A stretch of 64,000 nucleotides of DNA from Patescibacteria group bacterium (GCA_043803385.1 JAZDKA010000041.1:19799-83798); one strand, 5' to 3'. Positions 35,850-51,574 are shown, counted from the first letter of the stretch. Notes: generated from the letters alone by a model not told the origin. Numbers and translations are program-made.

Positions 35850-35941
35850 TTCTAACCGATTCGAAATTACGAAAAATTATGCGAATCTGCAAAATTTTTG
35901 TTCGTAGATTCGCATTCAATTCGTAGTTTCGCATCGGGTCT
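35850..35941. repeat. Degenerate family A-related repeat (tacgaa/ttcgtag motifs)
   Basis: cgaaattacgaa...ttcgtagattcgcat...aattcgtag. Confidence 0.45.
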
Positions 35942-43088: not shown

Positions 43089-43239
43089 AAAACCGATGCG
43101 AATCTACGAATTAAATGCGAATCTACGAAATGTATGAATCGCGAAGTTGACTTAGTAATCTAGCAAAGATGAGTTATATTGTCAATGTTTTTAGGCTTCA
43201 ATAATATTCGGATAGTTTTAATTTATAAATTTCATAAAT

Positions 43240-43284
43240 CAGACAATTACTTTGATACTTTCGAGTATCAAAGTAATTGTCTGA
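43240..43284. repeat. Perfect 20-bp-stem hairpin (cagacaattactttgatact-ttcg-agtatcaaagtaattgtctg)
   Basis: Seen directly in sequence. Tetraloop ttcg. Confidence 0.8.
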
Positions 43285-43625
43285 TAGTGATAAAATAGAT
43301 TTGAAAGGTTAGCTTAGGATAAATTAAAATTTCGTGGAGTATGCATAAATTAAAAGCGGGTAGTGCTCGATGGCTCTACCCGCGGTATTTCTATGACTTT
43401 CACCTCTCGTTTGAAAGGATTTTTTTCGAGTTTAAGTTTTGAATCTTTGAATTTTGATAAAAATCTAAACTAACTGCAATACTTTCTGCCCACGGATGTG
43501 GAATAGATTGTATATCAGACCTCCTAAGGGAGAATCTAGTGCATGCTTGAAAACTCCAAGGAGTATTTCAAGATATCACCTACCAAGGTAGAGTGATATT
43601 AAGCTAGAAGAACTTAAGATATTGG

Positions 43626-43660
43626 GGAATCCAGACTGTTTTCAATCTGGACTCCCCCTT
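43626..43660. terminator. Hairpin ggggaatccagact...atctggactcccc + T-run, at the junction with the foreign-like island
   Basis: On the plus strand it is followed by tttctgttt. It lies immediately 3' of the minus-strand gene 43666-44664. Confidence 0.5.
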
Positions 43661-43665
43661 TCTGT

Positions 43666-44664
43666 TTAACCGATGATCTGAACTTCCGCATCATGACCGC
43701 CTGCCAGATGTGAGAAAAGTGCCTGTTGCTGACGGGAATGCAGGTCTGCCTTGCCCTCATATTCACCCATGAGGAACTTCATGGCAGTGGTTCTGCAATC
43801 GTTGTACGCCTTTGTGAAATTGTCCGTATGCTTCCGTTCTATTTCCGACGGAAACGGAACTTCGGCAATACCTTCACTGGGCACATAGGTTGTGATGTAA
43901 TATCCGTCTATAATGCGTGGCCGTACAATTGCTGTGCGACCATTGTAGCTTACCCTTACCGTAAGCGGTTTGAGTCTTTTTACTTCCTCTGCCGTTTTTG
44001 ACGGCAGCGTATTCACGGTATAAATTGTTTCGGCATGATTCTGAGCGATTTGTTCGCCCAGTCCGGTAATCGCGGTCTGGATTTCTCCCAAATTACGATT
44101 AGTCGCTTGCTGTCGTCTTTCCCCGTCCTGCCTGCGTCTTTCGTCCTGGCGCCGGTTATAAAGAATATATGCGCCGAGACCAAGGAAGCCGAAGATCAAA
44201 ATTGCTGCCATTATCCGGAAGTTTTTGACAATCATGTCGGATACGTTTCCGAGTCTTTCGTAGAGCCAATCAATGTTGCTCGCATTGACTCTATTGGCTT
44301 CCGTATTTTTGATAACAGCGTCTGCGAGCTTATCCACTGATTTCATCGCAGACTTGTGTACCTCCAGGGCAGCTGCATTCGCTCCTTCGACGGCAACTTT
44401 TATTTTTTTGTCGAGAGCATTAAACGCTCCCTCAACCTTGCCGTCCTTGCTTCCGAGGAGTTTCTTCTCGAGACCGTAGACGCTCCCGACTTTCTTCTGG
44501 ACCGCTTTCGCAATCCCCTCCTCGGTAATCTGAGCCGGCTGAGCCGACTGTCCGGCAACGGACGTGTTGCTGTCAACCTGCGGTACTTTAATTTCCGCTT
44601 GTGCCGTGAAAGACACAAGCACCAATGTCAAGATGGCCATAATGGCCAGAATTTTTGTTCTCAT
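43666..44664 (-). CDS. Hypothetical secreted/membrane protein, foreign-looking (GC ~50%, strong SD)
   Basis: Signal peptide, a central TM segment, and an RRQDERRRQDGERRQ stretch. Preceded by AAGGAGGCATCG-ATG. Confidence 0.55.
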   Translation of the reverse strand: MRTKILAIMAILTLVLVSFTAQAEIKVPQVDSNTSVAGQSAQPAQITEEGIAKAVQKKVGSVYGLEKKLLGSKDGKVEGAFNALDKKIKVAVEGANAAALEVHKSAMKSVDKLADAVIKNTEANRVNASNIDWLYERLGNVSDMIVKNFRIMAAILIFGFLGLGAYILYNRRQDERRRQDGERRQQATNRNLGEIQTAITGLGEQIAQNHAETIYTVNTLPSKTAEEVKRLKPLTVRVSYNGRTAIVRPRIIDGYYITTYVPSEGIAEVPFPSEIERKHTDNFTKAYNDCRTTAMKFLMGEYEGKADLHSRQQQALFSHLAGGHDAEVQIIG

Positions 44665-44674
44665 CGATGCCTCC

Positions 44675-46087
44675 TTATCGTTTGAGTTCTTCGTATTTAT
44701 CAGGAATAGAATCTAGCTTCTTCTCCTGCCCGTGCCTTATCGCTATCTCTTTCCCTTTGAGTTCGAGAATGGCCAAAGCCCAGTTGTAGCGGACCTTGTA
44801 AATGACATTCTGCGCCCCACTCAGGGTTGAGGTTTTGATGTGCTTCTTGGTTTTGGGGTCTTTCTTTGACTCATGGCCATTATTGAAATCCCGTTCGGCA
44901 ATCTCATACTGTTTGATTGCTTTTTCAAGAAGCTCCTTGTTGGTTCTGCCAGTGCAGAAATACCAATCAAGGTAAGCATCTCCGTATTCCTTCCGGAGCC
45001 GTTCGTTGTTATAGGAAGGTGTATCGCAGAATAGCGTACCTTCCTCCATTTCCTTGATCTTTTCGATATAAATTGATGGATTGCAGACTGGCTTCGGTGG
45101 CTCGACTTTCGGTGGCGGACATGGTTCCGGCTTTTTTTCCACAATCACTACTTTAGTTTTTGGTGGAGGAGGCGGACTGCAAATATCCACACCGTTTGGC
45201 GGCGTAGTCGGTCCATCATTAAGAGCTAGAACCATCCAGTCATATGCCGTATCGACATATGCTTCGGTCGTTCCGATTAATCCGCCGAGTGACATAGCTA
45301 CTGCCGTGTCGTCCGGCGAACCAAACAGTTTTGCTCCGGCTGCTCCAGATCCAATTGAGAACCCGGAATTTTTCGGGTCTCTGCGCATCCTGTAGAATGC
45401 AAAGACCCGGCTGGTATTGGTCGTCGCCTTAGCTTCCGCCAAGCAACGTCCCAATGCCGCTCCTTTCGGCCACCCATAGTAACCCTCGCATTCGAACTCA
45501 CCTAAGAGTTGGTCACTCGGATAAATCATAGATGAATCCCAATTCAGGATCACCACAGGTTTGTTATCCGAGTTTCCATTGAATGGCACATGAATAACTT
45601 TTTTCACTTCACCTGAAAAGAGCTTGTGAAAAAATCCGCCTTTCCGGTCCGAGAACGAACCGGAACTTCCTGTGTTGCTAAGTCGCTCTTTGGTATAAAT
45701 CCGATAGAGCGGCTGGCATAAGAAAGGTTTCCAACCGTCAACAGTCGGAAAGAGTGGAGCTCCGACGAAACTTCCTACGGGACCAGGTAACGCAGTGATA
45801 TGTTCCCGCTTATCTTCACTGACATATGTGTTAGTCAGCGAATTATCTGCGGAAGAATTTCCGCTGGTGGCATTTGCGTTGCCACCCTTTCCACCAATAC
45901 CAATAGCAGTCTGTTTCTGCTGTTGGTCTTGATTTTGCTTTTGATTCTGATCCTGCGTGGCGTTTCCGCCGGTTGATGTCGCAGTATTCGAGTTTGAATT
46001 ATCAACATTCGTGCTGACGTCTGCCAACACTGGTCCTGTAAAAATCAGGACCGCCAATGCCATAAATACTACAAAAACTGTCTTCAT
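44675..46087 (-). CDS. Hypothetical secreted protein, foreign-looking. Its N-terminal module matches that of the LPXTG protein at 47450-47995.
   Basis: Signal peptide. ADVSTNVDNSNSNTATSTGGNATQ matches ADVNVSVKNTNKNTATATGGTATQ. A proline-rich PPPPKTKVV...PEPCPPPKVEPPKP segment. Preceded by GGAGGTGCAAT-ATG. Confidence 0.55.
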   Translation of the reverse strand: MKTVFVVFMALAVLIFTGPVLADVSTNVDNSNSNTATSTGGNATQDQNQKQNQDQQQKQTAIGIGGKGGNANATSGNSSADNSLTNTYVSEDKREHITALPGPVGSFVGAPLFPTVDGWKPFLCQPLYRIYTKERLSNTGSSGSFSDRKGGFFHKLFSGEVKKVIHVPFNGNSDNKPVVILNWDSSMIYPSDQLLGEFECEGYYGWPKGAALGRCLAEAKATTNTSRVFAFYRMRRDPKNSGFSIGSGAAGAKLFGSPDDTAVAMSLGGLIGTTEAYVDTAYDWMVLALNDGPTTPPNGVDICSPPPPPKTKVVIVEKKPEPCPPPKVEPPKPVCNPSIYIEKIKEMEEGTLFCDTPSYNNERLRKEYGDAYLDWYFCTGRTNKELLEKAIKQYEIAERDFNNGHESKKDPKTKKHIKTSTLSGAQNVIYKVRYNWALAILELKGKEIAIRHGQEKKLDSIPDKYEELKR

Positions 46088-46283
46088 ATTGCACCTCCGT
46101 GCTGTATTTTTTGATTCTTTTTCCCTATATGAAACCGACTAGGTCGGTTATCTAAATTGTTAAAAAACATTCTTATCTATATTTTTATCCTCCTCCCATT
46201 TTAAGCAAAGTGTTAAGTAAACTATTACTTAAAACGGCAGAGGGACAATGGAATCAATCAGCGCCAGGCGCTGAACATGATTT

Positions 46284-46433
46284 TTATTGAGCCTCTAAAC
46301 TTAGAATATTTTCCTCTAATCTTTTTATCTCATTTTCAGCTAAATCAGCCTCTTTCCAATCCCCATTAAGGAACTGATTGGCTTGAAAAGCTATAAGATA
46401 TTCCAGTTTTTTCAGTAATTCAAATTTAGACAT
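46284..46433 (-). CDS. Possible small protein (49 aa) MSKFELLKKLEYLIAFQANQFLNGDWKEADLAENEIKRLEENILSLEAQ
   Basis: An ATG-initiated ORF below the ORF-track size cutoff, with host-like composition. Confidence 0.25.
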   Translation of the reverse strand: MSKFELLKKLEYLIAFQANQFLNGDWKEADLAENEIKRLEENILSLEAQ

Positions 46434-46492
46434 ATATTTAGGGTTAATTTTTATGGTATTTTCAGAACCTCGTATTCTAGCAGATAACTACA

Positions 46493-46575
46493 GTTCTGTC
46501 AACCCCGCACTAACTTTTTGCTGGCGTAGCCGATTTAGCGCTTTGCGCTTGCAAAAAGTTAGTGCGGGGCAAGTC
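46493..46575. repeat. Family E long-stem hairpin repeat (tgtcaaCCCCGCACTAACTTT...AAAGTTAGTGCGGGGcaag), copy 1; likely bidirectional terminator
   Basis: A 19-bp stem, T-rich on both sides. It is 3' of the sortase gene. Copy 2 is at 55381-55466. Confidence 0.75.
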
Positions 46576-46578
46576 TTT

Positions 46579-47433
46579 TTATTTCACCATTTCTGCTTTG
46601 ACGACAATCCTCCGAAGAGCTGTTCCTAGCGGCCAGCAAGTGGATAATGTTAGCGTCGGTTCGGATGTTTCGGCAAATATTCTTTCATCATCCGGAGCAT
46701 CAATATATTTTCCGGAAACTTTGTACTGGTAAATGACAACTGCTCCATTGTATTGGATAGTTTTTACGGAAATCAGATCTCCGGCTTCAAGATTATTCAA
46801 ATCTTTGAAGATATAATTATAATCTCCCTTCACCCAAACGTAATTGCTTGAATGTCCGGAAATTACCATATTTCCATTCTGTCCGGGCGAAGCAGTTTTT
46901 GGATAATGGGCAATCCCGCTTTTCAAATCTTCCAGCATATTTTTTTCATCTTCGCTCACTGACCAAATCATTGGAGCATTCACCGATATTTTTTCTATAG
47001 ACAGTTCCACTTTCATTTTTCTGTCTCCCGGAAAACTTGGGTCGTAGCCGTTAGCTATTTCATTCTTGTCAGAATATCCGTCTCCGTCCGTGTCGGCTTT
47101 TCGCGGATCAGTCCCGTGGACATATTCCAAAAAATTAGGAAGCCCGTCTCCATCCGGATCGCCGTCATATTTTTCGCTTCCTGCGCCCAAATTATGCTGT
47201 TCCGCCCATCCGTCATAATCCAGGGAAGCAATAGAACTCGAACCCATTCTTTTTTTGAGTTCCTGGTTGCTATTGTCGCTGGAAACGTTTAAAGAAGCGG
47301 GTAATTTTTGGTTGCTCGGTTTGATGTCCAAATTGGACAGATAAAAAAGAATAAAAAATATGGCCAATAAAAAACAGCTGAAAAGAATAGAATTAATCCA
47401 ACTGCCTCTTATTTTTCGCCAAAAATTGTTCAT
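46579..47433 (-). CDS. Sortase family transpeptidase with thrombospondin-type-3-like Ca-binding repeats
   Basis: Has the TLSTCWP catalytic motif (TLxTC) and DPDGDGLPN / DTDGDGYSD repeats. N-terminal TM segment. Confidence 0.75.
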   Translation of the reverse strand: MNNFWRKIRGSWINSILFSCFLLAIFFILFYLSNLDIKPSNQKLPASLNVSSDNSNQELKKRMGSSSIASLDYDGWAEQHNLGAGSEKYDGDPDGDGLPNFLEYVHGTDPRKADTDGDGYSDKNEIANGYDPSFPGDRKMKVELSIEKISVNAPMIWSVSEDEKNMLEDLKSGIAHYPKTASPGQNGNMVISGHSSNYVWVKGDYNYIFKDLNNLEAGDLISVKTIQYNGAVVIYQYKVSGKYIDAPDDERIFAETSEPTLTLSTCWPLGTALRRIVVKAEMVK

Positions 47434-47449
47434 GATTTTAATTCAAAAA

Positions 47450-47995
47450 CTATTTTGCGTATCTTTTGTAAGTTTTTACAGAACCTGCAGCTACTAATCC
47501 TGAAGCGGCTAAAATTCCAAGCAGTCCCGGAATTCCTGCTCCCGTAGCTGGCAATACTTTCTTGGTTATATAAACTTTTTTTCCGTCTTTATTATGAGTG
47601 TAATAAACCTTCTTTCCGTTTTTGTATTCGTAATGATCATTATTATGATCCTTATTTCCGTTATCTTTATCAACGTCTACCTCCACCTTTGTTTTTGAAG
47701 TTTGGCTAACAGAAGCGCTACCGCCAGTAGTTGACCGCGACTGGCTTTGAGATTGCGACTGTGATTGCGATTGTGATGATTGCGCAAGCTGTGAAGACGA
47801 AGATTGTTTCTGGCCTTGAGATTGCGACTGTGATTGTGATTGCGTTGCAGTTCCTCCTGTCGCAGTTGCCGTGTTTTTGTTAGTATTTTTCACGCTAACG
47901 TTTACGTCAGCGAATGCCAAATTTACAGCCAAAAAACACAAGGCTACGGCTGAAATAGCAAGCATTGACGCATAGATTATTCCCCTTTTTGCCAT
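47450..47995 (-). CDS. LPXTG-motif cell-surface protein (sortase substrate) with Ser-Gln repeats
   Basis: Signal peptide, (SQ)n low complexity, and a C-terminal LPATGAG + hydrophobic stretch + KTYKRYAK sorting signal. Confidence 0.65.
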   Translation of the reverse strand: MAKRGIIYASMLAISAVALCFLAVNLAFADVNVSVKNTNKNTATATGGTATQSQSQSQSQGQKQSSSSQLAQSSQSQSQSQSQSQSRSTTGGSASVSQTSKTKVEVDVDKDNGNKDHNNDHYEYKNGKKVYYTHNKDGKKVYITKKVLPATGAGIPGLLGILAASGLVAAGSVKTYKRYAK

Positions 47996-48122: not shown

Positions 48123-49298
48123 TTATAACTGCACTTTCACTTTCATCTCTTGCCCGTCTCTAATTACGGTAAGTTCAATGGAATCCCCCTTTTTATATTG
48201 GCTCAAAAGATTAGATAATGGATTATCGAGATTAACTTCCTTATCGCCCACTGAAATTATAATGTCGTTTATTTTTAGCCCTGCTTTTTCCGCCGGAGAT
48301 CCGGAAAGTATAGCCAGTCCTTGCTTTCCAGATGAGGAATAAATTAGCGCGCCCTTATCGCGATTCAAATTATTAGCAATCGCATAAGCTTTGCTTATGG
48401 GCAAATAATAAATTCCAAGATACGGCCTTTTGCTGAATTCATTTCCAGTTGCCAAATTCATTGAGTTCTTGACTATATTGGAAGGAATTTCGAAAAATTT
48501 TTCTTGGTTATCGGTAGTGAGCGATCCGATAATTCCAACTAGCTCGCCGTTATAATTAATAATTGGTCCGCCTAAGTAATCTTTTTTGTCCAAAAAATCC
48601 GTTTCAAAAACTCCTTCCATTTTTTCCGAAGAAGAAAGAGTTTTTCCGGAAATATTGAAAGTTTTGTCGATATTACTCAAAAGTCCCGAAGAATATCTGT
48701 TTTGATAATCCTCAAATGAATTTCCGATAGCGATAAGTTTTTTTCCCGGATAGAAATCATCTGAATTTGAAAACGGGATAGGAGAAAAGTTTCCCGCCTC
48801 GATTTTTAAAAATGCAAGATTGGTAAATTCATCTATTCCGACCAATTTCGCTTCATGCGAAGAACCGTTGAAGGGCAAAATTTGGTATCTGGCATCGCTT
48901 TCGGTTATAGCGGTTCGATATGTTGCAATAAGCCCGTCTGAAGTTATGATCACTCCAGTCCCATTTCTGATTCCTCCTAGCGGATTTAAAGCAGTTTTAT
49001 CTTTGTCTGAAATTGAAATTATGTTTACTACGGAAGCTCCGGCCTGTGAGGCAATCTTATTCACTGAATCTTCTTCTTTGATGGTTACTTGCTCGGTTTT
49101 GCTTATGATGGTCGTGTTTTCGATAGCTTTTTTAAATAATTTTAATTTTGATAATGTCGGAGAACTGCTGGCTTTTGGCAAAATATACGCATTGAAAACG
49201 ACGGATCCGAATCCACCGACTATGAACATAAACAATGCTAACAATAATATCCTGGTAAACTTCCTCATCTTATTTTTTATTATACCGCCAATTGCCAC
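48123..49298 (-). CDS. HtrA/DegP-like trypsin-fold + PDZ protein with all three catalytic residues substituted (pseudo-protease)
   Basis: Alignment to the neighbouring htrA shows His->Thr (LIATYRTAI vs LVATNKHVV), Asp->Asn (NLAFLKIE vs DIAIIKVE) and Ser->Leu (DYLGGP vs GNSGGP). The PDZ region is retained. Confidence 0.7.
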   Translation of the reverse strand: MAIGGIIKNKMRKFTRILLLALFMFIVGGFGSVVFNAYILPKASSSPTLSKLKLFKKAIENTTIISKTEQVTIKEEDSVNKIASQAGASVVNIISISDKDKTALNPLGGIRNGTGVIITSDGLIATYRTAITESDARYQILPFNGSSHEAKLVGIDEFTNLAFLKIEAGNFSPIPFSNSDDFYPGKKLIAIGNSFEDYQNRYSSGLLSNIDKTFNISGKTLSSSEKMEGVFETDFLDKKDYLGGPIINYNGELVGIIGSLTTDNQEKFFEIPSNIVKNSMNLATGNEFSKRPYLGIYYLPISKAYAIANNLNRDKGALIYSSSGKQGLAILSGSPAEKAGLKINDIIISVGDKEVNLDNPLSNLLSQYKKGDSIELTVIRDGQEMKVKVQL

Positions 49299-50017
49299 CT
49301 TGAGCTGGTTAATATCAGCCCGATTATTATGCTGAATACGATTAAATTTACAATTATCCTTTTTTTGGAAAGCTTTCTTGAAAAGTAGCTGTTAGCCATA
49401 TCCCAAAACACATAATAGAAAATAAGGGCTATTACTCCGGTTGTCAAGTATCCGAACGGCCAGAAATTTATTACCCATGAAAGTTCCGCCATAGCCATGG
49501 AGAGTATCAAACTATAATTCAGGATTTTCTTTTTGTCTTTGGAAATAACGCTGAAATAATGATAGCTTAAAATAAAAGTAATAGCCAGAAAAGCAAACAT
49601 CAGTATAGTTAGCGGAATGGAAAAATTTATGTAAATTCCGTAAAATCCGGCATAGAAAAAGAAAGCCGATGCCATTATCGCTCCCGCGTAAACTCCGGCA
49701 GCTGTCTGATCTTTGGAATAATTTTTGAGCCGATATATTCCAAGAAGAATAAAATAGAATACAGTAGAAGAAAAAATAATAAATATCTGTTTTTCTAATG
49801 GAAAGTCTATAAGATAAAATAGAACTATCGATGACAGGGAAAATAGCATCGGAATAACGGAAAAAGAATATTTTTCCCCCAGCCTTTTTCCCGCAAAGAA
49901 TGAAAAAAACAAAAAAAATGCCGCCAAAAACCAAACGAGATTTTCATTGAGATAAATAAGTTCAAAAGCAGATAAAAACAATACGGAATAAAATAGAGAT
50001 TTAAGGTGAAAAAACAT
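49280..50017 (-). CDS. Hypothetical polytopic membrane protein
   Basis: A 245-aa protein with ~7 predicted TM helices. Confidence 0.45.
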   Translation of the reverse strand: MFFHLKSLFYSVLFLSAFELIYLNENLVWFLAAFFLFFSFFAGKRLGEKYSFSVIPMLFSLSSIVLFYLIDFPLEKQIFIIFSSTVFYFILLGIYRLKNYSKDQTAAGVYAGAIMASAFFFYAGFYGIYINFSIPLTILMFAFLAITFILSYHYFSVISKDKKKILNYSLILSMAMAELSWVINFWPFGYLTTGVIALIFYYVFWDMANSYFSRKLSKKRIIVNLIVFSIIIGLILTSSRWQLAV

Positions 50018-50137
50018 ATACCGGAAATTACTAATTTCTAATTATTCTAATTTCTAATCAAATCCCAATTACTAAATTTTCTAATTTAAAAAATTAGAAA
50101 TTAGGTTAATTAGGTCAATTAGAAATTTTATTTTATT

Positions 50138-51364
50138 TTATTTTATTTCCTCCAACGTGGCTTTTACGTCATTCGTACTTCCTTTATGCCAGACTTTTAA
50201 CGTTATTGTGTCTCCGACATTGTAATTAGCAATAAGATCGCTAAGCTGGTTGCTGTCATTTACTTTGGTTCCATTTACTTCCAGTATTATATCATTTTCA
50301 ACTATTCCGGCTTTGTCAGCTGGAGAATTGGGCATTACTGCCAGATCTGTCGGCTTTGATCCCCTCAAGACAAGTGCGCCGTAGCCAAAAGGAAGATTAT
50401 TGTCGGACTGAATCTGCTTGTCTATAATAACGCTTCTTACTCCCAGATAAGGAGTTGATATTTTTCCCGTAGCATTCACTTGGTCCACTATTTTTTTTAT
50501 CTGGTTGGAAGGAATCGCGAATCCTATATTTTGAGCGCCTTGAGCTATGGCTACGTTTATGCCTATAACATTACCGCTGATGTCCAAAAGCGGACCGCCT
50601 GAATTTCCGGGATTTATGGCGGCATCCGTCTGAATTATATTGGAAAGCTGCTCGGTTTGTCCAAGGCCTGATCCGGCAGTCAGATTCCGGCTTAGGCCGG
50701 AGATAATGCCCTTGCTCACTGTATTATAAAACTCTCCTAAAGAATTTCCAATGGCGATAACAGTTTGTCCCACTTTCAAATTGTTCGAATCCCCAAAACT
50801 CAAAGTGGGAAAATTATTTCCTTCGACTTTGATTATTGCGATATCCTTAACTGGATCTCTGGCTAGAACTTTGGCTGGATATTCTTTTCCGTCATTTGCT
50901 ATAACGGTGTAATCAGCGTTTGCGTCGCTTACCACATGCTTATTGGTTGCTACTAATCCATTTTGATTTACCAGAAATCCTGATCCGGCGCCCACTGTTT
51001 GCTTCTCGGTGCCGCTACTTTGATTTTCTTCGAGGTCATTGAAAAACCCGAAAGGATCTTGGAAAAAGCTCCTGTATTTTGGCACATCCTTTGAAATAAC
51101 GATGCTAACAACTGCCGGAGTAGATTTGTTTACTGTTTCTATCACAGTCGATTCTTCCTCGGTGATATTTTGATTTACTGCTTGATTCGATTGGTCCGTT
51201 TTCTTTCCTATGGAAATTTTTCCACCCATAAATCCAAATACTGCTCCAAAAAAAGATGAAAGCAGGATCGAAAGTATGATTGCTGTTGTGAATATTGATT
51301 TTGAAGCACTCTTGACGCTATCTTGTTTTGGAATTTCTTGTTCTCGATTAGTTATATTTTCCAT
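50138..51364 (-). CDS. htrA: Serine protease HtrA/DegP (active triad) with PDZ domain
   Basis: Has TNKHVV (His), DIAIIKV (Asp) and GNSGGPLLD (Ser), plus a C-terminal PDZ domain. ATG start chosen at MENITNREQ; the ORF track used an upstream TTG. Confidence 0.85.
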   Translation of the reverse strand: MENITNREQEIPKQDSVKSASKSIFTTAIILSILLSSFFGAVFGFMGGKISIGKKTDQSNQAVNQNITEEESTVIETVNKSTPAVVSIVISKDVPKYRSFFQDPFGFFNDLEENQSSGTEKQTVGAGSGFLVNQNGLVATNKHVVSDANADYTVIANDGKEYPAKVLARDPVKDIAIIKVEGNNFPTLSFGDSNNLKVGQTVIAIGNSLGEFYNTVSKGIISGLSRNLTAGSGLGQTEQLSNIIQTDAAINPGNSGGPLLDISGNVIGINVAIAQGAQNIGFAIPSNQIKKIVDQVNATGKISTPYLGVRSVIIDKQIQSDNNLPFGYGALVLRGSKPTDLAVMPNSPADKAGIVENDIILEVNGTKVNDSNQLSDLIANYNVGDTITLKVWHKGSTNDVKATLEEIK

Positions 51365-51574
51365 ATTGGGAATAGATTTTAATTTTGGTTTTATATTTAA
51401 GACTTGCGCATTTGCCTCTGTCAAAGCCGTAGCTCCGGCGCGATGACGGACAATTTTGTAATCGCGCCTCCGAAAACGGCTTGTCATAGTCAAATACGCA
51501 AGCTTCGCTTTTTTTATCAAATTATTGCTTAAATGTCCGCATTAGTCTGCGTTAAGTCCGCGTAGGTCGGCGGA

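Follow-up and report, generated by a model that had tools for sequence, protein, structure and literature searches.

A conserved sortase cassette of Patescibacteria with matched N-terminal tags on an LPxTG protein and on a secreted protein without a sorting signal

We describe a conserved four-gene cell-surface cassette of Parcubacteria/Moranbacteria-type Patescibacteria. It was found in a stretch of 64,000 nucleotides from a Patescibacteria group bacterium (GCA_043803385.1 JAZDKA010000041.1:19799-83798), hereafter called the window, where four genes lie on the minus strand at 43666-47995. We designate them A (an LPATG protein), B (a sortase), C (a secreted protein rich in guanine and cytosine, GC) and D (a membrane protein). 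Directly after the signal-peptide cleavage site, A and C carry the same kind of short N-terminal tag, and in related loci the two tags co-vary genome by genome without sharing codons. This points to selection for matching and not to a single shuffling event. We consider the structural and evolutionary description of the cassette to be very probable. The explanation as a whole, in which the tags also dock C on A, stands a little below an even chance.

Genes A, B, C and D occur in the same order in 12 Parcubacteria/Moranbacteria-type loci, and in 12 of the 15 distinct loci that were recovered the gene right after the sortase is C. The window and seven further loci (L001, L004, L005, L011, L013, L015, and L016) have the full order of a gene for a DUF5656 protein, an HtrA/PDZ protease gene, A, the sortase gene with TSP3 repeats, C, D, and Wzz-like or glycosyltransferase genes. 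Four shorter contigs (L008, L014, L018, and L021) contain the core of A, sortase, C and D. An LPxTG protein is encoded directly upstream of C in L017, and a sortase in L020. The loci come from genomes of 36-48% GC; the named records among them are one Candidatus Moraniibacteriota genome and one Parcubacteria-group genome. In the collection scans, species-representative genomes gave two loci and metagenomes gave four. Glycosyltransferase and sugar-nucleotide genes flank the locus.

Gene A (47450-47995) encodes 181 amino acid residues, beginning with a signal peptide (47909-47995) and the tag DVNVSVKNTNKNTATATGGTATQSQSQSQSQGQKQ (about 47801-47908). A low-complexity Ser-Gln spacer with a second motif, TTGGSASVSQ, and a stalk rich in Asp, Lys and His follow, and the protein ends in a sorting signal (47453-47554) composed of LPATG, the hydrophobic stretch AGIPGLLGILAASGLVAAGSV and the basic tail KTYKRYAK, as expected at the sequence level for an LPXTG protein. 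All 12 A proteins (116-212 residues across the loci) end in [LVM]P[AV][TS]G, a hydrophobic stretch and a basic tail. No curated family matched A: searches against Pfam, NCBIfam, PHROGs, PADLOC and PDB sequences gave low-complexity noise only.

Gene B (46579-47433, 284 residues) encodes a protein with an N-terminal membrane segment, TSP3 repeats and a catalytic domain. It matched Pfam Sortase PF04203 with 84.1 bits (E 8.7e-24, cut-off 26.6), TIGR01076 with 46.4 (cut-off 39.35) and TSP3_bac PF18884 with 34.7 bits (E 1.5e-8, cut-off 25); the two Ca-binding-type repeats, DGDPDGDGLPN and DTDGDGYSD, are encoded at about 47035-47160. Among solved structures, the sortase 4D70 comes closest (E 1.4e-11), and SGHSS, TLSTC and LRRIVVKA of B align with its His, Cys and Arg. 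The Cys of TLSTC is Cys266 (46636-46638), and TL[ST]TCWP is kept in all 12 sortase orthologues. Class D gave the best class match, below threshold (NF033746, 68.6 against a cut-off of 165; NF058671, 71.3 against 140). The class E score (NF033747, 51.2) and the class C score (43.2) are both below their cut-offs of 160; the substrate motif here is LPATG and not the LAxTG of class E, and the 64-kb window has one LPxTG protein with a membrane segment, whereas a class C pilus island has at least two LPxTG pilins. B is a class D/E-like sortase that is anchored in the membrane and carries Ca-binding repeats of TSP3 type. The sortase and its substrate adjoin in all 12 loci that have both. These results uphold what a sequence-only reading of the window had proposed, namely a cell-surface locus with a sortase of TSP3 type next to its LPATG substrate; its proposed checks by signal-peptide and sortase-class prediction gave signal peptides on A, C and D and a sortase below the cut-offs of classes C, D and E. 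The sortase orthologue of L020 (L020:2-1135) has a much longer TSP3-type array, with at least five DxDxDG motifs before the catalytic domain, and the Ca-binding stalk of the sortase thus differs in length across lineages.

Gene C (44675-46087) encodes 470 residues and is identical to 'hypothetical protein V1804_03900 [Patescibacteria group bacterium]'. It has a signal peptide (46022-46087), the tag DVSTNVDNSNSNTATSTGGNATQDQNQKQNQDQQQKQ (about 45908-46021), and a proline-rich stretch (PPPPPK...PEPCPPPKVEPPKP), and neither an LPxTG motif nor a C-terminal membrane segment was found in it, which agrees with the earlier description of the gene. An AlphaFold model, built on a 16-sequence alignment, predicts a disordered tag region (residues 16-115), an alpha/beta domain (residues 116-295, 45203-45742), a proline-rich linker (residues 296-335, 45083-45202), and a confidently modelled helical domain, putatively TPR-like (residues 336-470, 44678-45082). 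The alpha/beta domain, which is small and of envelope type, includes the most conserved stretch of the protein, a poorly modelled Gly-rich insert (DPKNSGFSIGSGAAGA...SLGGLIGTT). Searches of Pfam, NCBIfam, PHROGs, PADLOC and PDB sequences returned no meaningful match to C, only low-complexity noise.

A word-indexed search gave 16 homologues of C, none of them named and none with Pfam domains; a word-index profile search, overrun by low-complexity candidates, contributed two more proteins only. A profile search that read every sequence enlarged the C family to 230 clusters at 50% identity (E <= 1e-3), of which 93 are at E <= 1e-30. None of 122 full-length representatives has a sorting signal; QxQxQ or NxNxN occurs in 79 of these 122, and ATGGNA in 45 of the 156 representatives scanned. 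The tag module DVxVxV-NxNxN-ATGGNA-QxQxQ therefore appears to be ancestral to the C family. In 17 distant representatives (P0107, P0110, P0114, P0120, and 13 others), an OmpA-like 'NRRV...GPASGK' C-terminus replaces the TPR-like domain and the alpha/beta domain is kept; one distant cluster is labelled 'OmpA-like domain-containing protein, Candidatus Portnoybacteria'. As distant members join the alpha/beta domain to an OmpA-like C-terminus, the sequences suggest that this core domain is a general cell-envelope module.

The mature proteins begin with ADVNVSVKNTNKNTATATGGTATQSQSQSQSQGQKQ in A and ADVSTNVDNSNSNTATSTGGNATQDQNQKQNQDQQQKQ in C. Composition-adjusted BLASTP aligned them with 18 of 44 identities (E 3e-6), and when the mature ends were aligned locally, 22 of 40 positions were identical, with a score 13 standard deviations above that of composition-preserving shuffles. 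The similarity that the sequence-only reading had seen between the two N-termini is thus alignable and goes beyond composition; purely compositional similarity was ruled out by these shuffles and by the composition-corrected permutation described below. Among the open reading frames (ORFs) of the 64-kb window, TGGxA and QxQxQxQ occur together in A and C only.

In both proteins, the tag starts right after the cleavage site and has the form [DV-x-V-x-V][N-x-N-x-N][ATGG-x-A][Q-x-Q-x-Q...]. Across 45 representatives of the C family, a near-invariant ATGGNA has [V/I]-x-[V/I]-x and N-x-N-x-N before it and a Gln in every other position after it; the information content rises and falls with a period of two, and ATGGNA is in tandem in some lineages. 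Identities between the A and C tags of the same genome also fall at a lag of two residues (97 such pairs, where 72 +/- 4 are expected; 0 of 20,000 shuffles reach 97). We take the tag to be a specific motif beyond low complexity, and it looks like an extended strand, a Gly-Gly turn and a second strand with one conserved face. N-glycosylation was considered as a role for the tag and rejected, as A has a single N-x-S sequon and C has none.

A second, weaker GG-x-A motif follows the Gln-rich stretch in both proteins (TTGGSASVSQTSKTKVEVDVD in A, 47720-47735; GGKGGNANATSGNSSADNSLTNTYVSED in C, 45845-45900). Since both carry it, the first 90 or so residues of C may mirror the entire ectodomain of A and not its tip alone. 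Some tags have paired cysteines, namely GQCFGDCG, DWDCDGCGG, GCGNCGDVCDGCG and TCSGSSCGG (the last in C of L017); the sites are L015:2816-3166, L016:5197-5763, L018:106-738 and L017:778-2088. These tags may be a disulfide- or metal-binding variant.

For the analysis of co-variation, the first 45 mature residues were used and every A was scored against every C. With eight loci, the true pairing of A and C was the best of all 40,320 permutations, and remained so after each score was corrected for composition. With 12 loci, the true pairing summed to 1099, compared with a random mean of 638 (standard deviation 63, maximum 1024), and none of 2,000,000 random pairings reached 1099. In each direction, 9 of the 12 loci have their own partner as the highest-scoring match. 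A single divergence of the two tags predicts equal similarity within and between genomes; thus, the excess within genomes calls for concerted change of the A and C tags.

Individual loci illustrate this matching. Both tags of L018 have a doubled ATGGNA and then V.V..C (A ...SSATATGGNATATGGNANVQVGC, C ...SAATATGGNAIATGGNADVRVSTC), and both tags of L014 have GDITNTN and then N-x-N (A ATGGSAIAKIGDITNTNSNSN..., C STGGSGVATVGDITNTNRNKN...). In L021, the sister genome of L014 whose sortase gene is 96% identical at the nucleotide level, both tags are of the Q-x-Q type; the comparison indicates that these sister genomes switched both tags together. The window and L021 share the same tag type, with cross scores of 113 both ways, whereas the sortase of L014 is only 67% identical to that of the window. 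The C-D pair of L012 (L012:1034-3935) has no sortase or LPxTG protein upstream; a 265-residue secreted protein is encoded there instead, and C of this locus (P0005) is without the NxNxN/ATGGNA/QxQ tag. This single case fits a tag that is tied to A.

The matching is not accompanied by matching codons. At identical residues, the same codon is used in 72 of 173 cases within a genome (42%) and in 351 of 876 cases between genomes (40%), and the aligned A and C tags have a nucleotide identity of 48-62%. As there is no excess of shared codons, recent gene conversion between the two tags was ruled out.

Genes C and D also differ from their neighbours in composition. Their GC contents are 47.2% and 49.0%, compared with 37.7% for the window, and their GC contents at third codon positions are the highest among 52 ORFs. 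From their amino acids and the codon usage of the window, 43.5% is expected for C and 43.1% for D. The remaining codon-level excess is 3.8 points for C (z 2.2) and 6.2 points for D (z 3.5), the two largest among the 52 ORFs. Amino acid composition thus explains part of the GC excess and was rejected as its sole cause, codon usage being shifted too. In every locus examined, C and D are richer in GC than the flanking genes (for example, 57% and 53% in L008, compared with 38-39%).

A comparison of the sister loci L014 and L021 bears on this difference. The flanks and the sortase gene are 91-97% identical in DNA, whereas C is only 72% identical, and no DNA alignment is possible for the middle of A or for D beyond its start. 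By Nei-Gojobori estimates, synonymous divergence (dS) is 0.16 for the sortase, the protein of which is 95% identical, and 1.28 for C, with a ratio of nonsynonymous to synonymous divergence (dN/dS) of 0.15. This low ratio indicates that C is under purifying selection between the two genomes. For D, dS is 1.53 overall, and the proportion of synonymous differences (pS) in its first 40 codons is 0.10. In A, pS is 0.14 in codons 1-40, 0.71 in codons 41-136, and 0.32 in codons 137-176. Between L001 and L005, dS is 0.55-0.91 in the flanking genes and 1.5-1.9 in A, C and D. Because saturated synonymous sites adjoin a nearly unchanged sortase, the middle of A, C and D behave as exchangeable, deeply diverged alleles brought in by recombination; local positive selection is not indicated, and the sortase and flanks are inherited conservatively. 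The Spearman correlation of the sortase and C identity matrices (0.07) is uninformative owing to a star-like phylogeny; thus, dN/dS on two sister pairs was used instead.

The sequence-only reading had called C foreign in type and had suggested module shuffling between host and acquired surface proteins. The atypical composition of C and its history separate from that of the sortase (dS 1.28 versus 0.16) stand, whereas a recent insertion does not agree with the position of C in 12 of 15 loci, and the shuffling is contradicted by a module that is ancestral in the C family and by tags that co-vary without shared codons. No mobility gene, tRNA, convincing flanking repeat, or phage or defence family hit that would mark C-D as a mobile element was found at the locus; PHROGs gave no hits, and the sole PADLOC match was a weak, low-complexity one to A. 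The position of C-D is conserved across the syntenic loci.

To account for these observations, we propose that B would attach A to the cell wall and that the tags of A and C would pair like with like, as an in-register beta or Asn/Gln ladder. Through this pairing, the anchored stalk A would dock the unanchored C and so present it at the surface, and D may link the assembly to the membrane or the cytoplasm. As in-register Asn/Gln ladders favour identical sequences, like-with-like pairing would explain selection for similarity and not for complementarity. The turnover of alleles would reflect diversifying selection on an exposed structure, for example through the phage or host-cell specificity of presumed episymbionts. 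In its fullest form, the proposal is that the tags are extracellular like-with-like docking modules of amyloid type, which decide which secreted protein sits on which sortase-anchored stalk, and that tag, C and D circulate among Parcubacteria as exchangeable alleles. Stated so fully, it must be called rather unlikely.

Several points weigh against docking through the tags. The loci come from metagenomes throughout, with no cultured organism among their sources. In L015 and L016, which have the most divergent C proteins, the tag match of the own partner is not above the matches between genomes. Low-complexity dipeptide repeats yield patterns of period two by construction, and the tag in the C model is disordered, with a predicted local distance difference test score of about 25-30. 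Neither the curlin repeat (Curlin_rpt PF07012) nor the chaplin family (PF03777) was detected in A or C by Pfam at E <= 0.1. An old gene conversion followed by synonymous saturation is possible. The docking of C on A is something that we purely infer, and we regard it as tentative and more doubtful than probable.

The tag might instead be an address label read by a third component, such as the TSP3 region of the sortase, an HtrA-type protease, the ectodomain of D, or a glycosylation or export factor, with A and C co-processed or co-localised. The location of the tag at the extreme mature N-terminus of both proteins would suit a label, as would the conserved neighbourhood of HtrA/PDZ proteases, DUF5656 protein and sortase, the flanking glycosyltransferase and sugar-nucleotide genes, and the putative TPR-like domain of C, a type of fold that binds peptides. 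However, the tags differ strongly between sister genomes in which the sortase protein is 95% identical, and HtrA and DUF5656 are conservative too. A fixed reader would have to tolerate very different tags, and comparable variation is found only in D. We consider a label of this kind unlikely.

The tag could also be an exposed adhesive or antigenic tip, two scaffolds binding the same variable external ligand (a host-cell surface or a phage receptor-binding protein), so that both copies track one target. Hypervariability together with allele exchange, as found in C, D and the middle of A, is typical of exposed surface determinants, and the same tag type occurs in the distant lineages of the window and L021. 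Such a tip leaves unexplained, and would not lead one to expect, the strand-turn-strand Asn/Gln ladder with a near-invariant ATGGNA core over about 230 clusters, and it seems to us distinctly unlikely.

Concerted evolution without function, by gene conversion between the 5' parts of A and C or by parallel slippage of repeats, would be helped by the nature of the tags, which are both slippage-prone, low-complexity dipeptide repeats, and by the placement of the two 5' parts about 1.9 kb apart in direct orientation. We judge it very improbable: the frequencies of shared codons (42% versus 40%) and the nucleotide identity of the tags (only 48-62%) do not agree with it, the similarity is concentrated on one face of the strand, and the non-repetitive parts (DVxVxV...ATGGNA, GDITNTN, and V.V..C) match as well as the repeats. 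Finally, that C is a horizontally acquired foreign gene which took or donated the N-terminal module of the resident LPXTG protein in a single event is scarcely credible, since the GC-richness of C and D at the codon level and their synonymous divergence between sisters of about eight times that of the sortase are outweighed by the same gene order in 12 loci from genomes of 36-48% GC, the ancestral module, a co-variation that would need repeated matching, and the lack of mobility genes, tRNA, convincing flanking repeats, and phage or defence hits at the locus.

The proposed docking of C on A has counterparts in known systems, and by sequence comparison the cassette belongs to none of the chaplin, curli and amyloid-signalling families. 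In the chaplins of Streptomyces, the sortase-anchored long ChpA-C are thought to tether the short secreted ChpD-H by co-assembly (PMC5618241). There too, anchored and unanchored secreted proteins share one assembly module. The tag of the cassette, in contrast, is a short, hydrophilic, N-terminal Asn/Gln/Thr sequence, hypervariable and matched genome by genome, and its secreted partner is a multidomain protein of 470 residues and not a hydrophobic peptide of 55 residues.

In curli, the surface nucleator CsgB templates the secreted subunit CsgA, which has homologous Gln/Asn-Gly repeats; the consensus of the curlin repeat is GxGNxA...Q. Both systems have a cell-associated and a secreted protein that share strand-turn-strand motifs with Gln or Asn and Gly, and ATGGNA...Q is similar in flavour. 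However, the cassette has a single tag instead of five repeats, no secretion genes of the CsgG/E/F type, and a Gram-positive-like envelope with a sortase.

For the amyloid signalling pairs (fungal HET-s/NWD2 and bacterial BASS Bell/NLR), the similarity of motifs within a pair is diagnostic (bioRxiv 10.1101/2020.01.06.895854). The cassette resembles them in that neighbouring, collinear genes encode two otherwise unrelated proteins with a short terminal motif in common, which is closer within than between pairs. It differs in that those pairs are cytoplasmic, join an effector C-terminus to an NLR N-terminus and lead to cell death, whereas both motifs of the cassette are N-terminal, both proteins have signal peptides, and a sortase gene is between them. 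No NLR (NACHT/NB-ARC) or Bell/HeLo domain was found in the cassette proteins with Pfam and NCBIfam.

The serine-rich-repeat LPXTG glycoproteins of Gram-positive bacteria have dipeptide repeats with alternating Ser and a neighbourhood rich in glycosyltransferase genes. A is likewise an LPXTG protein, with alternating-Ser dipeptide repeats and glycosyltransferase genes nearby; it is, however, tiny (116-212 residues), and it has Gln or Asn in common with C where Ser would be expected of this class. The window showed no accessory Sec or GtfA/B genes. With the class D/E sortases that have a dedicated substrate, B shares the adjacency of a single sortase to a single LPxTG substrate and the conserved His, Cys, Arg and TLxTC; it differs in its TSP3 repeats between membrane anchor and catalytic domain and in its scores far below the cut-offs. 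Sortases are common in Patescibacteria (PMC6744442); the cassette is described neither in that study nor in a recent paper on a different Patescibacteria pilus system.

Gene D (43666-44664) encodes a single-pass membrane protein of 332 residues and starts 10 nt past the stop codon of C. It lies within the range covered by the sequence-only reading and is equally GC-rich, and was not described there. D of the window has a signal peptide and a helical extracytoplasmic region, crosses the membrane at residues 151-169, and continues through an Arg-rich stretch into about 115 residues of cytoplasmic domain, which is homologous to those of L008 (E 3e-13) and L013 (E 3e-11). Every D protein has a signal peptide and carries E-E-x-V at the mature end, and a helical ectodomain and a single membrane segment are likewise common to all; the cytoplasmic domain, of about 110 residues, is present in 8 of 14 examined. 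D had no match in Pfam, NCBIfam, PHROGs, PADLOC or PDB, and a profile search for homologues through the word index returned only D itself. A, C and D are three uncharacterised families.

The boundary between the A-B and C-D units is at 46474-46569. An inverted repeat with 24-nt arms (46503-46569) lies past the stop codon of the sortase gene. It is succeeded by TTGACA-17-TAGAAT (46502-46474), which has 11 of 12 matches and a TG extension and ranks highest among the promoter-like sites of the region. As the inverted repeat and then the promoter-like site are found 3' of the sortase gene, the sequence suggests that A-B is transcribed separately from C-D. The stretch with the promoter-like site (46464-46505) shares 84% identity with the sortase-C spacer of L001/L005. 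In the window, this spacer is unusually long (491 bp) and includes an ORF for 49 residues (MSKFELLKKLEYLIAFQANQFLNGDWKEADLAENEIKRLEENILSLEAQ, 46284-46433, minus strand), about 40 nt downstream of the strong promoter-like site. No counterpart of this ORF was found in any related locus; thus, it is probably not a gene, or is lineage-specific.

Directly past the stop codon of D, three strong hairpins (43520-43665, minus strand; minimum free energy -55.8 kcal/mol, z -5.4) probably mark the end of the C-D transcription unit. They are part of a non-coding gap of 577 bp (43089-43665), in which there are also a 48-nt palindrome (43238-43285), a 37-nt stretch 95% identical to 35901-35937 of the window, and a 50-nt stretch 78% identical to the region after D in L013. 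A scan with Rfam gave no family at the gathering thresholds, and downstream of D only sub-threshold noise of hairpin type. A 14-nt direct repeat (TGGACTCCCCCTTT at 43648-43661 and TGGAATCCCCCTTT at 48179-48192) flanks the four-gene block; it is most likely due to chance, as the upstream copy falls within the conserved HtrA coding sequence.

Upstream of the cassette, two HtrA-type proteases (Trypsin_2 + PDZ) and a DUF5656 multi-pass membrane protein are encoded at 48123-51520. The two proteases and the DUF5656 protein keep this place, right next to the cassette, in each of the longer loci, with a ClpB gene between them in some, and they could be part of the same envelope-maintenance unit as the cassette.

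How Patescibacteria build and vary their surfaces and recognise their hosts is largely unknown, and most of their surface proteins are unannotated. The locus offers a concrete unit of a sortase, an anchored stalk, a secreted multidomain protein and a membrane protein, and adds to it a rule at the sequence level, the matching of N-terminal tags, and a signature in population genetics, namely alleles exchanged around a conserved sortase. Even if the pairing of the tags fails, three uncharacterised families are defined, and the hypervariable surface locus is useful for strain typing and for studies of interactions with hosts and phages. If the tags do pair, they would be an extracellular counterpart of the matched-motif logic of cytoplasmic amyloid signalling and, after the chaplins, a second example of a sortase-anchored protein that tethers an unanchored partner. 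If the whole proposal is true, the cassette would amount to a swappable system of surface display that had so far escaped notice, and would be a candidate for what determines host or phage specificity in uncultured episymbiotic bacteria.

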